In this document: in pieces, positions 16,200-21,700 of the stretch | Layout of the letters: the number at the start of each line of letters is the position of its first letter | How positions within the stretch are numbered: the first letter of the stretch is position 1 | Assembly (NCBI GenBank): GCA_963693365.1 | Contig: CAVNZM010000004.1 | Coordinates: 13,535,928-13,599,927 of the forward strand | Length of the DNA stretch: 64,000 nucleotides | Reading direction: 5' to 3' | Source of the DNA: Amoebidium appalachense | Lineage: Eukaryota > Protista > Ichthyosporea | Made by a program: the position numbers and the translations under genes | Notes under the pieces: generated by a model | Told to the model about the DNA's origin: nothing | What the model saw: only the letters and a program-made list of their open reading frames with translations | The model's database searches: none

Positions 16200-16617
16200 C
16201 TTTCCTCCACCACACCCATCACAAACCCCTATAGATGTGGATGTGTGCCTACTGCCCACACCACCACAAATACGTTTCCCCCACCGCACCCACCACAAAC
16301 CCTAAGTAAGATGTGAATGTGGGGCCTACCCGCCGCCACCACTACAACTACGTTTCCCCCACCGCACCCACCACAAACCCTAAGTAAGATGTGAATGTGG
16401 GGCCTACCCGCCGCCACCACTACAACTACGTTTCCCCCACCGCACCCACCACAAACCCTAAGTAAGATGTGAATGTGGGGCCTACCCGCCGCCACCACTA
16501 CAACTACGTTTCCCCCCACCGCACCCACCACAAACCCTAAGTAAGATGTGAATGTGGGGCCTACCCGCCGCCACCACTACAACTACGTTTCCCCCACCGC
16601 ACCCACCACAAACCCTA
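16200..16617. repeat. ~78-bp minisatellite, ~5 copies, immediately 3' of the JmjC gene stop
   Basis: acaaaccctaagtaagatgtgaatgtggggcctacccgccgccacc... recurs with period 78-79. Confidence 0.92.
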
Positions 16618-19600
16618 GGCCACATTCATTTTGGCTTCCTCCTCGAACTCCTTGATGTCAGCCTTGTACTTCTCTCTCAGCTTTTTCCACTGTGCAGGGG
16701 ACACCTGTGGGTTGATAGTTGGGTGTAAGTGGTAGTCCAGCCAGGTGATTTGTTTATGCAAGGCTCAGACATCACTGTATGCCATTACCTCAAACACACC
16801 CACGCACCCACCACTACACCACCATGGCACACACCCACAGAAAACGAACTCCTACGTGTGGACCAGGTCAAGAAAAACTCTGCAAGGACCCAAAAAACCG
16901 TTTTTACGAACCCCTACATGTAATTGTGAATGCTAGGGCATGGTGTGTGTGTGTGTGTGTGTGTGTGTGTGTGTGTGTGTGTGTGTGTGTGTGTGTGTGT
17001 GTGTGTGTGTGTGTGTGTGTGTGTGTGTGTGTGTGTGTGTGTGTGTGTGTGTTACGTGTTTGTTTGTTTTTTTTTTTTTTTTTTTTTTTTTTTTTTTTTT
17101 GGGGGGGGGGGGGGGGGAGGGGGGGAGGGGGGCTACCTTGAAAACGTGTTTCCTGTCAGTGTAGCCACACGTGCATGCCGGGGGGGCTTCTTGCCAGCGA
17201 CCACAAGCCAGTTGACCGTGGCAAAATTTACCGCCTCGGCCAAGCTGCTACCAGTAGCATACCCAAAGTGGTATGCCCCAGGCAATGTGTAGATGACCTC
17301 GCCGGCCTGCTGAACCGTGTGCTGCACAGGAACACCCTTCTTCATCAAGTAACGGGGGTGGATGAACACAGACTGTCCCACCCACATGTTAGTCATATGA
17401 AAAACCGGGTGGTCGTTTTTGTAAGTGCTTTTTTGTTTTTTGTTCTTCACGTCATTCACGTCAGTGTCTACCACTCCCTCTCTCTCTCTTCTTGTAGTCC
17501 TCTGTTGTGTGTGTGGTCGTTTTTTTTTTTTTTTTTTTTTTTGGGGGGGGGGGTGGTGAGGGATTACCTTATGCTGTGTGACTTTCTTGCAGATACCGGC
17601 CCCCGAAAGGCCAAGCCTCTTGTAGATATCCTCGAGGATAGACGTGACCTGTCCATTGTACTCTGCACTGATTATATACCAGCCTTTGTCTCCGGGCCCA
17701 CGGGCCATGATGTTGACACTTCCGAGCAGAGCGTCTTCTGTGTGGGGCACAAACGGAGACCCCGTCGTGACACTGCAAGGAGGCATGTGATTGGGGTTAA
17801 AACAATAATTAGTTCCGACTTCGATGTGATCCAATACATTCCGAGAAGACCTGACCCATGTTTGTTGTTGTGTTTTTTTTTGTTTTTTTTTTTTGGGGGG
17901 GGGGGGGGGGGAAGGGGTGGGGGGCATACTTATAGAGCATCGGTGTTGAGATGCCCTCACAGTTCTGGAACTCTCTCGATACAATCGACCCCAGCGTCTC
18001 CAAGCTGAACATGTAGTCGATTTCTTCCCTCACTACCTGTACACACACCACATTGCATCAACACAACATACACTCTCCGCACAAACACACGCACACACCC
18101 ATGCCTACACAACATGCACTCTCTGCTGCACAAACACACGCACACACCCATGCCTACACAACATGCACCCTCTGCTGCACACACACGAATACACCCATGC
18201 CTATACAACATGCACCCTCTGCTGCACACACACGAATACACCCATGCCTACACAACATGCACCCTCTGCTGCACACACACGAATACACCCATGCCTACAC
18301 AACATGCACCCTCTGCTGCACACACACGAATACACCCATGCCTACAGAATACACCCATGCCTTCACAACATGCACCCTCTGCTGCACACACACGAATACA
18401 CCCATGCCTACACAACATGCACCCTCTGCTGCACACACACGAATACACCCATGCCTACACAACATGCACCCTCTGCTGCACACACACGAATACACCCATG
18501 CCTACACAACATGCACCCTCTGCTGCACACACACGAATACACCCATGCCTTCACAACATCACACACACGAATACACCCATGCCTACACAACATGCACCCT
18601 CTGCTGCACACACACGAATACACCCATGCCTACACAACATGCACCATCAGCTGCACACACACGAATACACCCATGCCTACACAACATGCACCCTCTGCTG
18701 CACACACACGAATACACCCATGCCTACACAACATGCACCCTCTGCTGCACACACACGAATACACCCATGCCTACACAACATGCACCATCAGCTGCACACA
18801 CACGAATACACCCATGCCTACACAACATGCACCCTCAGCTGCACACACACGAATACACCCATGCCTACACAACATGCACCCTCTGCTGCACACACATTAA
18901 TACACCCATGCCTACACAACATGCACCATCAGCTGCACACACACGAATACACCCATGCCTACACAACATGCACCCTCAGCTGCACACACACGAATACACC
19001 CATGCCTACACAACATGCACCCTCTGCTGCACACACACGAATACACCCATGCCTACACAACATGCACCATCAGCTGCACACACACGAATACACCCATGCC
19101 TACACAACATGCACCCTCAGCTGCACACACACGAATACACCCATGCCTACACAACATGCACCCTCTGCTGCACACACACGAATACACCCATGCCTACACA
19201 ACATGCACCATCAGCTGCACACACACGAATACACCCATGCCTACACAACATGCACCCTCAGCTGCACACACACGAATACACCCATGCCTACACAACATGC
19301 ACCCTCAGCTGCACACACACGAATACACCCATGCCTACACAACATGCACCCTCTGCACAAACACACGCACATACACACACATGACATACACGTACCTCAC
19401 TGGGTGTATGGGTGTTTTTAAGAGGTGTCAGATCCGTTCCGTAAAAGAACATTTTACTGTAAGTTTCCGGTAAGCAGTCCAATTGCCCCCAGAACTCCTC
19501 CTCATCCAACGGGTCCCCCTGCTCAATCGTGTTAGCTCCTGTTCACGGTAACCATACCCTAATGGTTGCAAATACGCACCTCTGGAATTTGCTCTTTGAT

Positions 19601-21700
19601 GTCGTCCCCATAAACGAGGAAGACATCCTTGATGGCGGTAGCCTCCAGACAGATCTTGGTGTAGGATTTTCTCACTGGTGTGGCCCAAGCAGCCTCTTCC
19701 AGCCCCTGCACTACCGGTTCGGGAAGCATGAACTTGACGGCACCAGCTGCCCGAACCTCGTGTCGTTTTTCCATTACCCTAACTATCGTCTCAAATGAGA
19801 GCTTTTCTAACTGCAGTTGGCTGAGATGTTTCACGGGTACCTCGGTGAACCCCACCGACTCCCCTGTCTCCGCCCCCTGCTGTTGCCCCCTATCCGCCTC
19901 CTCCGCTTCTTGCTCTGTGTGTGTGTGTGTGTGTGTGCCATGCGTGTGTGCACGTGTGTGCCGGGTGTGTGTGCATGTTTGTGCCGGGTGTGCGTGTGCG
20001 TGTGTGTCGGGGTGGGGGGTAGGATTAGCCAAGGTGGATGCACGTGTGCAGGTGTGTGCTCTCTCTCTCTCTGTGTGTATGTGTGTGGTGGTGGTGGTGG
20101 TTGGGTGTGTGTGGCGGGGACTAGTCGAGGTGCCCAGGTGCATGCATGCGTGCAGACGTGCAATGGCTTGTGTGTTGGGGGGGGGGGGGGGGGGGGGGGG
20201 GGGGGGGGGAGCGGGGGGATAGCCCAGGTGCATGCGTGCGTGCAGACGTGTGATCCCTTCCGTGTGTGTGCGGGGAGAGGGGGGATAGCCCAGGTGCATG
20301 CGTGCGTGCAGACGTGTGATCCCTTCCGTGTGTGTGCGGGGAGAGGGGGGATAGCCCAGGTGCATGCATGCGTGCAGACGTGTGATCCCTTCCGTGTGTG
20401 TGCGGGGAGAGGGGGGATAGCCCAGGTGCATGCATGCGTGCAGACGTGCAATGGCTTGTGTGTTGGGGGGGGGGGAGGGGGGGGGAGCGGGGGGATAGCC
20501 CAGGTGCATGCGTGCGTGCAGACGTGTGATCCCTTCCGTGTGTGTGCGGGGAGAGGGGGGATAGCCCAGGTGCATGCATGCGTGCAGACGTGTAATGGCT
20601 TGTGTGTTGGGGGGGGGGGGGGGGGGGGGGGGGGGAGAGGGGGGATAGCCCAGGTGCATGCATGCGTGCAGACGTGTGATCCCTTCCGTGTGTGTGCGGG
20701 GAGAGGGGGGATAGCCCAGGTGCATGCATGCGTGCAGACGTGTAATGGCTTGTGTGTTGGGGGGGGGGGGGTTACCCGGCCTGAAATCCCAAGGAGATGT
20801 GTTGCGGGTGTGGCGGTAGCCCTCTGCCCCCCTCTGCCCCTCCCTCTCCTCCCCCCATCCCCACCCTCTCCCTCTCCCTCCCCCTCCCCCTCTCCCCCCT
20901 CCCCACCCCCACCCTCTCCCTCTCCCTCCCCCTCCCCCCTCTCCCCCCTCCCCACGCCCACCCTCTCCCTCTCCCTCCCCCTCCCCCTCTCCCCCCTCCC
21001 CCCACCCCCACCCTCTCCCTCTCCCTCCCTCCTCTCCCTCCCCCTCTCCCCCCTCCCCACCCCCTCCCTCTCCCCCCTCCACTCTTGACCGCTTTCTCGG
21101 TCGGTCACTCGTCGGTGCAGGTAGCTTGAAAGCGGGGCTGCCTGGGGGGCTACGTGCAGCCCCATCCCACCACACTTTCCATCCGTGCTTTTTGAAGATG
21201 CGACAAATCTGGAACTCCCCCGGCAAAGTACCCACCACGGCAGGTATGCGACTGTAGTCCTTACTGCCAGGATACAGAGAAATGCGACCGAGCTTCACCG
21301 CCCAACCCTCACTCGAAAACGGATGATAGCTGTGAAGATCATAAATCTTCCATCGAGGACCACCAAATCTGAGAATCCAGGCTACAACTTCCGGGATGCC
21401 CATGTCGTTTTCGAATTCGTGTAGGTTGTAGTTCTTCCTGCAACTAGGACGTCCGTCGTCCAGTTCAATCAAAAAAACATAAACATGTTCTGAACCCGTT
21501 GGCATCACCAAATATATGATCGGTGCGAGTTTTTTTTTTTGAGGATGACGATAAATACTCTGACGTGTGAGTAGCCTTTTACCGGTAAATATAACTGACG
21601 GATCAACGTCGTTCGAAAGCCTAAATGTGGGTGGGTCGAGTGGTATGCTGCTCGGGAATGCACGAGTGATGAGCGCCAGAATATCGCCGTTAACAGCCAT
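16615..21700 (-). CDS. KDM4-like (JMJD2-type) JmjN/JmjC histone lysine demethylase with a novel N-terminal domain; two frame breaks in homopolymer runs
   Basis: Exons (minus): 21700-20776, 19914-19580, 19538-19396, 18036-17930, 17772-17568, 17372-17137, 16704-16615. JmjN reads VPVKHLSQLQLEKLSFETIVRVME...AAGAVKFMLPE. It is followed by EEEFWGQL...FFYGTD; EGISTPMLYNVTTGSPFVPHTEDALLGSVNIM...KGWY (cf. KDM4 [31 protein letters not shown]...KSWY); CKKVTQHK; QQAGEVIYTLPGAYHFGYATGSSLAEAVNFA. The CTC Zn ligands appear after a 1-nt correction at the G7 run 17180-17186. A second 1-nt correction is needed at the C5 run 19515-19519. Confidence 0.88.
18094..19360. repeat. 47-bp minisatellite, ~27 copies, with a 141-bp higher-order period; fills a JmjC intron
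   Basis: Unit acacccatgcctacacaacatgcaccctctgctgcacacacacgaat; the variants catcag/ctcag/ctctg cycle in threes from ~18780. Confidence 0.95.
20130..20770. repeat. 66-bp minisatellite with two alternating unit types; fills JmjC intron 1
   Basis: gatagcccaggtgcatgc(g/a)tgcgtgcagacgtg... at 20218, 20284, 20350, 20416 and onward. Confidence 0.92.

Follow-up and report, generated by a model that had tools for sequence, protein, structure and literature searches.

A KDM4-type histone-demethylase-like gene behind an orphan N-terminal region, beside a Plavaka transposase of Amoebidium appalachense

Could a transposon of the ichthyosporean Amoebidium appalachense carry its own eraser of repressive histone marks, and what would bring such an enzyme to its target? 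These questions are raised by a stretch of 64,000 nucleotides (nt) of contig CAVNZM010000004.1 (GenBank assembly GCA_963693365.1, positions 13,535,928 to 13,599,927; hereafter the window), in which a gene resembling the KDM4 histone demethylases lies 10 kb from a Plavaka transposase. An earlier, sequence-only reading had proposed a reader-less KDM4-like enzyme with intact catalytic and zinc ligands behind an unknown N-terminal domain. The KDM4-type histone-demethylase-like gene is real: it consists of seven predicted exons on the minus strand (21700-16615; Table 1), all six introns are GT-AG, and the exon phases are consistent up to exon 6. In the account that we hold with roughly even confidence, the gene encodes a KDM4-type JmjC enzyme that has no reader domains, stands behind an orphan region and is Plavaka cargo, and its intact form would strip the di- and trimethyl marks from lysine 9 of histone H3 (H3K9me2/3), slowing silencing.

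Exons 5 and 6 match the Pfam JmjC family PF02373 (E 7.6e-17), which is the only Pfam domain of this multi-exon gene. The closest solved structures are KDM4D chains (E 1.4e-11), and 58 sequences are retrieved at E <= 0.001, KDM4 and KDM5 mixed. All the motifs named in the sequence-only reading for iron and 2-oxoglutarate (2OG) binding are present. H507, E509 and H600 correspond to the KDM4A iron ligands H188, E190 and H276, and Y446, N517 and K526 to the 2OG contacts Y132, N198 and K206 (KDM4A numbering from the available parts of PMC6010108, PMC8162366 and PMC3308871); N517 and K526 are placed by alignment, Y446 by motif and spacing only, exon 3 alone having retrieved no KDM4. Five spacings are identical to those of KDM4A (H188-E169, 19; N198-H188, 10; H240-C234, 6; H276-K241, 35; N290-H276, 14). 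The substrate pocket, which had been described as divergent, is mostly conserved. Five of six H3K9me3-binding residues are kept (equivalents of D135, E169, Y177, K241 and N290), as is the G170 equivalent (G489), with N86 unplaced; only Y175 (Met), S288/T289 (A/V, close to the A/I of KDM4D) and the loop quoted in that reading differ. The case for altered specificity is accordingly weak, the methyl-lysine pocket being mostly kept. From the D135, E169, Y177, K241 and N290 equivalents and the KDM4D-like A/V at 288/289, we infer that the substrate would be H3K9me3/me2.

The sequence relatives retrieved were six KDM5 and two KDM4-type proteins only, none of them from Amoebidium, and pairwise scores favour the KDM4 type over KDM5. 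Translated with an X at a frame break described below, the model aligns to one KDM4-type protein, P0009, through C..HK and CTCG with 76 bits, versus 56-61 for the six KDM5 proteins; the P0009 score is 77.9 bits when read through with X versus 71.3 as assembled. The JmjC-only protein P0010 of Coniosporium apollinis (W97_09059) scores 60 bits against the 76 of P0009 and has no match to exon 2, and it shares GSP..H.ED.LLGS.N, C..HK and TLPGAYH with this gene. The first of these stretches (17568-17772) may be the signature of a broader clade of KDM4-likes without readers. No relative of the JmjC part was found in metagenome or viral contigs, in searches for which some patterns derived from intron translation.

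Neither a PHD nor a Tudor domain was found in the protein, as had been claimed, and 39 residues follow the second Cys of the zinc-binding CxC, close to the tail of about 35 that had been proposed. Reader loss is not unusual, because human KDM4D (PMC3308871, available in part) and many Amoebidium genes are also reader-less. With human KDM4D/E and yeast Rph1 the gene shares the iron triad, the 2OG residues, the C..H..CxC residues (with CxC out of frame as assembled), the Y177/K241/N290 equivalents, the Ala at 288 of KDM4D and the lack of PHD and Tudor domains. It differs from them in about 330 extra N-terminal residues, Met at Y175, Pro at the W187 equivalent, the missing JmjN match discussed below and a frameshift.

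This frameshift lies just ahead of the zinc CxC. A run of seven C (17186-17180, minus strand) throws the CTC codons out of the catalytic frame as assembled, and the spliced open reading frame (ORF) then stops at codon 653, without the CxC. The sequence-only reading had described a continuous frame and crossed this shift silently; of its zinc site, C558 and H564 (KDM4A C234 and H240) are in frame, but the CTC is not. With an X at the break the model runs to 673 residues; apart from the shift, these 673 codons contain no premature stop and have lost no catalytic residue. Other copies of the gene are available in contigs drawn from four of 23 listed sequencing runs (X1 and X3, DNA; X19 and X20, one sample). 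An X3 DNA contig and the X19/X20 contig have eight C, which restores the frame, and the single X1 contig across the run has six, also out of frame. The CxC codons (C306 and C308 equivalents) are in frame in X3 and X19/X20 and out of frame in the window and X1. Short G/C runs are the usual site of long-read error. The Plavaka transposase, which reads through 907 codons with a single shift at a G5/C4 run (1705-1715), and a coiled-coil gene to the right (Table 1) also shift frame at or near such runs. Because all three left-half shifts sit at short G/C runs, the one-base shift is likely an assembly error; the six-C contig of X1 leaves a real inactivation possible.

The exon map is supported by a spliced contig of 1184 nt from X19 and X20 (RNA status guessed), which runs through exons 2-3-4-5-6 free of introns. 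Its joins 3|4, 4|5 and 5|6 match the prediction to the base and 2|3 agrees by length, and four of the six exon joins are thereby supported, by a related copy; 1|2 and 6|7 lie outside it. The first 180 nt at its 5' end have no match anywhere in the window at 80%. The contig is 2 nt short at 19667 and 1 nt short at 17668; read on the window's letters, the frame between these shifts holds six stops. In exon 2 it shows 22 further differences from the window over 196 nt, and in exon 6 four over 238 nt. Because of the two frameshifts and the six stops between them, it is not an intact mRNA. For the join that it leaves aside, no in-frame stop follows exon 1, which must therefore join something downstream, and its donor phase matches exon 2. 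No contig covers 20905-21064 and no X19/X20 contig lies on exon 1; neither absence was counted as evidence.

The early stop, the six-C contig and the broken frame of the spliced relative all weigh against our account, and further such points come from JmjN and from the comparison of copies. A JmjN downstream of the new domain had been reported; we found no match to Pfam PF02375 and none with a profile built from JmjN segments of four of six KDM5 proteins, and the candidate in exon 2 is a by-eye motif only. Each DNA run holds at least two sequence types of the gene (three in X3). Between the window and a diverged copy, the ratio of non-synonymous to synonymous differences per site (pN/pS) is 0.21 in exon 6, a synonymous excess, and 0.22 in the alignable end of exon 1, where 10 of the 16 listed differences fall at third positions (p 0.016). 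The excess in exon 1 comes from amino acids (aa) 182-195 (seven synonymous versus three non-synonymous among the listed changes); in the globular part, the listed changes are two synonymous versus four non-synonymous. In exon 2, aa 371-416 (19593-19729) carry 17 non-synonymous versus two synonymous listed changes, a pN/pS of 2.67, and this segment differs from exons 1 and 6 taken together (12 non-synonymous to 16 synonymous; Fisher p 0.002, on small counts of listed changes only). The excess may reflect diversifying selection or decay; the segment lies near the KDM4A K9/K36 selectivity residues by rough position only, unaligned. Two of its 17 non-synonymous changes are private to the window. 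In all, seven letters are window-private when compared with most or all contigs (17684, 17705, 17731, 17989, 19609, 19699 and 21685). Six are transitions, the window having C or G for T or A in the contigs, and no single error motif is found in the contexts of the seven. Six alter an amino acid, one placing Gly for Ser beside the 2OG lysine.

Together with the frameshift in the transposase, these features could mean that the window holds a decaying pseudogene, perhaps like most members of the family in the strain, with a genuine frameshift, a lost zinc site and no active enzyme as product. We consider this unlikely, given the eight C of X3 and X19/X20, the otherwise undamaged 673 codons and the position of all three left-half shifts at runs prone to sequencing error.

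Its sequence marks exon 1 as coding: one of 5,000 shuffles gave an open frame as long as 200 codons. A diverged DNA contig (X1 and X3) keeps the start context of exon 1 and is one codon longer there (MAATNEQ for MAVNGD), and its frame is kept at aa 147-156 (HDLSHIPEVS for KDYSRIPAVV, 5 of 10 identical; both hand-translated). If its loose end and the joint are one record, its unaligned middle has 6 nt fewer than that of the window. The N-terminal region is mostly less than 80% alike between copies, and exon 6 is about 93% alike. Residues 1-185 have an isoelectric point of 9.5, 24 Lys and Arg, 17 Asp and Glu, 12% aromatic residues and two Cys, too few for a zinc finger. The basic patch PRKRSR of the sequence-only reading is present. 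The G/E linker described after it exists as a G-rich stretch, but it is a 49-bp repeat that alternates between E/G-rich and R/G/W-rich readings.

That the N-terminal coding region is of unknown kind agrees with every family, homologue and fold search, all of which came back blank. Searched whole and in two parts, the region has no Pfam match (best, PFU, E 0.19), and it has none in PHROGs or NCBIfam, none among PDB sequences at E 10 and no usable match in the ESM Atlas. A word-index search accepted 0 of 447 candidates (lengths 392-1248 only), 0 of 91 pattern matches in metagenome contigs and 0 of two in viral contigs were accepted, and the six frames of the window hold no second copy. Two matches among 1.84 billion representatives (E 3.5e-4 and 8.2e-4) were rejected as short stretches in long repetitive proteins. 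The fold check suggested with the sequence-only reading was run, but without a significant fold match: single-sequence AlphaFold2 models reached a predicted local distance difference test (pLDDT) of only 35.4 and 41.6, and with these poor models Foldseek found nothing at E <= 0.001 in PDB or BFVD and VIA gave a best Z of 3.8. A chromo-like or integrase-type fold, considered by eye from a three-strand-plus-helix outline at aa 60-112, found no support in any test and was set aside. The blank searches prove neither that homologues are absent nor that the fold is new.

The sequence-only reading had gone further and proposed that the domain may bind specific DNA sequences and so target the demethylase, perhaps to the tandem repeats of the element. 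VANC of the VANDAL transposons offers a model, as its binding and hypomethylation have reportedly been demonstrated for an element-encoded factor; the shared idea is a factor acting on the element's own copies, and the protein here is an enzyme of another class, known from sequence only. The region is basic, and it keeps its frame but falls below 80% similarity between copies against about 93% for exon 6, a pattern that a specificity module would be expected to show; the element also holds many arrays. The zinc fingers that yeast Rph1 and Gis1 are described as having in place of readers provide a precedent, as does PAG3 of red-algal Plavaka elements, in which a putative DNA-binding domain is paired with a 2OG oxygenase beside arrays (10.1101/2025.02.11.637652, in the text available). 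However, the only words shared by the five proposed target minisatellites are short (at most 11 nt) and mostly of low complexity, mostly of CA/TGCA type and between single pairs of eight arrays. Introns contain three of the five (47, 66 and 375 bp), and tandem repeats are dense throughout, with 184 rows of them across the two halves of the window. With no zinc finger, no family, homologue or reliable model, and no test in its support, sequence-specific targeting to the element's repeats appears quite unlikely to us. In the account that we prefer, the orphan region would take over targeting from the lost readers, and a protein partner or chromatin is a more probable route than sequence-specific DNA binding, because nothing points to a DNA-binding fold.

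Whether the gene belongs to the transposon is a separate matter, although the three rivals to our account are not fully exclusive. Sarre et al. (2024; PMC11244446), in the text available, describe many multi-exon, JmjC-only KDM4-likes in giant-virus insertions of Amoebidium and propose an anti-silencing role for them; 39% of the insertions carry such genes, others lie among host genes, and their origin, host paralogue or viral remnant, is left open. The present gene resembles them as a divergent, multi-exon KDM4 paralogue with JmjC as its only Pfam domain in a large repeat-like region, and their genome likewise contains Plavaka giant repeats. Theirs, in contrast, sit in viral insertions or among host genes, whereas this one has a Plavaka transposase for a neighbour, with no viral marker found around it. 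The architectures in that paper are Pfam-based, and no N-terminal domain is mentioned in the portion available.

The gene could accordingly be a host KDM4 paralogue without its former readers, or what is left of a giant-virus insertion, with a transposase that happened to land nearby. That paper finds KDM4-likes inside giant-virus insertions, with a couple located among host genes, and sets Plavaka giant repeats apart as a class of their own, made up of tandem, intron-poor genes with many tyrosine recombinases; no recombinase family was found among the ORFs scanned here. The six introns and the 10 kb between gene and transposase also fit this alternative, and so does the failure to find element ends in the window, the left end of the element lying outside it (Plavaka termini are described as TGT..ACA or CATCA..TGATG, with 2-3 bp target-site duplications). 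A further point in its favour is that the exons are depleted of CG in the CGC/GCG context only (18 of 89 CG, 0.39 expected, p 1.3e-4). CGC/GCG is the preferred methylation context in Amoebidium, and such depletion marks transcribed host genes rather than silenced elements; we take it as suggestive of a host of that kind and of a transcribed past of the gene, and nothing beyond.

The transposase and an intronless 626-codon ORF show the same depletion, more weakly, and the right half of the window does not (p 0.24). Moreover, orphan ORFs lie on both sides of the gene, four of them intron-poor between the transposase and 29.7 kb, and over 23 kb (6.6-29.7 kb) no host-type family besides JmjC scores above the Pfam cutoff among the longer ORFs. 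No giant-virus (nucleocytoplasmic large DNA virus, NCLDV) core gene was found in Pfam among the ORFs scanned at 1-29.7 kb of the window. The multiple sequence types per DNA run also speak against this alternative. On balance, a chance neighbourhood seems improbable. The element context of the sequence-only reading is supported in part, by the transposase, element ends not having been found, and the gene is likely cargo.

Cargo of a related kind is known. In the available texts, Plavaka elements carry TET/JBP genes in fungi (Agaricales; PMC12730594) and a 2OG-oxygenase gene (PAG2/PAG3) in red algae (10.1101/2025.02.11.637652). These share with the present locus a transposase, a 2OG-dependent oxygenase gene and tandem arrays in a large element. 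Here, the enzyme is of the histone-lysine demethylase type, with no match to the PAG or TET families, and neither termini nor a target-site duplication were found. A literature search by title and the start of abstracts, with subscription papers mostly outside its reach, returned neither a Plavaka-borne KDM4 nor an N-terminal domain on Amoebidium KDM4-likes. What is new is thus the Plavaka setting of a KDM4-like gene and its orphan, fast-diverging front domain; the enzyme class is already known.

In the preferred account, the gene would travel with the Plavaka transposase as cargo. Exon 1 would be spliced to exon 2, and the intact enzyme would remove repressive H3K9me2/3 from the element's chromatin, which would likely slow silencing of the element. 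Few eukaryotic transposons have been shown to encode their own anti-silencing, and with a copy beside a Plavaka transposase, reader-less KDM4-likes would have a third kind of carrier. The unannotated N-terminal region would, if it guides the protein, explain how a reader-less enzyme finds its target. The fullest form of the proposal, a giant Plavaka whose KDM4 eraser has exchanged its readers for a new, fast-evolving domain that targets the element's own copies, is quite unlikely in our estimation; a transposon-encoded, self-addressed H3K9 methylation eraser in a protist, which it would amount to, is likewise a long shot, as is the further thought that such an element was possibly the vehicle by which reader-less KDM4 genes passed between host, transposons and giant viruses. 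With an enzyme of known class, a frame shifted in this copy as assembled and a domain whose role is only putative, the finding is a good lead rather than a discovery.

Table 1. Positions of the KDM4-like gene, its parts and neighbouring features in the window
Feature	Position	Strand	Remarks
Exon 1	21700-20776	-	ATG at 21700, open frame
Exon 1, orphan N-terminal region, about aa 1-185	21146..21700	-	open frame; start context and frame kept in diverged copy
Exon 1, Pro/Ser stretch and basic patch PRKRSR (aa 201-206)	21083..21145	-	resembles a nuclear localization signal by appearance only
Exon 1, G-rich linker, a 49-bp tandem repeat	20820..21082	-	letters and frame uncertain
Exon 1 end	20776..20819	-	donor at 20775, phase 1, compatible with exon 2
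Intron 1, 861 nt, holds 66-bp array	19915..20775	-	exon-1 frame stop-free down to 19559
Exon 2	19914-19580	-	possible degenerate JmjN, then aa 371-416 segment; 3' part within spliced contig
Exon 3	19518-19396	-	Y446 and D449, matched by motif and spacing to Y132 and D135; spliced to exon 4 in the X19/X20 contig
Intron 3, filled by 47-bp array, 27.8 copies	18037..19395	-	
Exon 4	18036-17930	-	E488, G489, M494, Y496 (E169, G170, Y175, Y177 equivalents); joins seen in related copy
Exon 5	17772-17568	-	H507, E509 (Fe); N517, K526 (2OG); C558, H564 (Zn); K565; joins seen in related copy
Exon 6	17372-17137	-	H600 (Fe), A612-V613-N614, frameshift, CxC codons at 17175-17167
Exon 7 and stop	16704-16615	-	78-bp array follows, 16201-16617
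Plavaka transposase, 9 predicted exons in window	3..6616	+	5' end beyond window; PF18759 E 8.8e-21, above cutoff
Intronless 626-codon orphan ORF	9406..11286	-	no match in Pfam, PHROG, NCBIfam, Atlas or viral contigs
Short orphan ORF, 86 codons	15244..15504	+	
Coiled-coil and proline-rich orphan gene	23876..25138	+	apparent frame change near C runs 24587-24602
Small orphan ORF, 166 codons	27930..28430	+	two Cys/Lys-rich motifs; no Pfam match
24-nt inverted repeat pair	28739..28838	.	candidate right element end

Among the neighbours, the 626-codon orphan ORF is likely also cargo of the element. All seven of the seven orphan ORF versions were absent from the protein collection searched, and Rfam gave no match. 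The Cys/Lys-rich motifs of the 166-codon ORF resemble those of large DNA virus proteins. The last intron of the transposase is filled by the 375-bp array, in four copies, and downstream of the transposase, at 7563-8562, a unit of about 514 bp is present twice, in diverged copies that are 72% alike. A direct duplication of 609 bp, 99% alike, occupies 12338-12946 and 14427-15035 on the plus strand, 2089 bp apart.

To the right of 29.7 kb, matches to DUF885, PAP2 and, weakly, metallophosphoesterase appear. This host-like half also holds an inverted duplication of 332 bp, 97.6% alike and 15 kb apart (34609-34940 and 49644-49974). The DUF885 match (E 3.2e-44), to a mostly bacterial domain, belongs to an intron-bearing gene at 57425-61059 on the plus strand.

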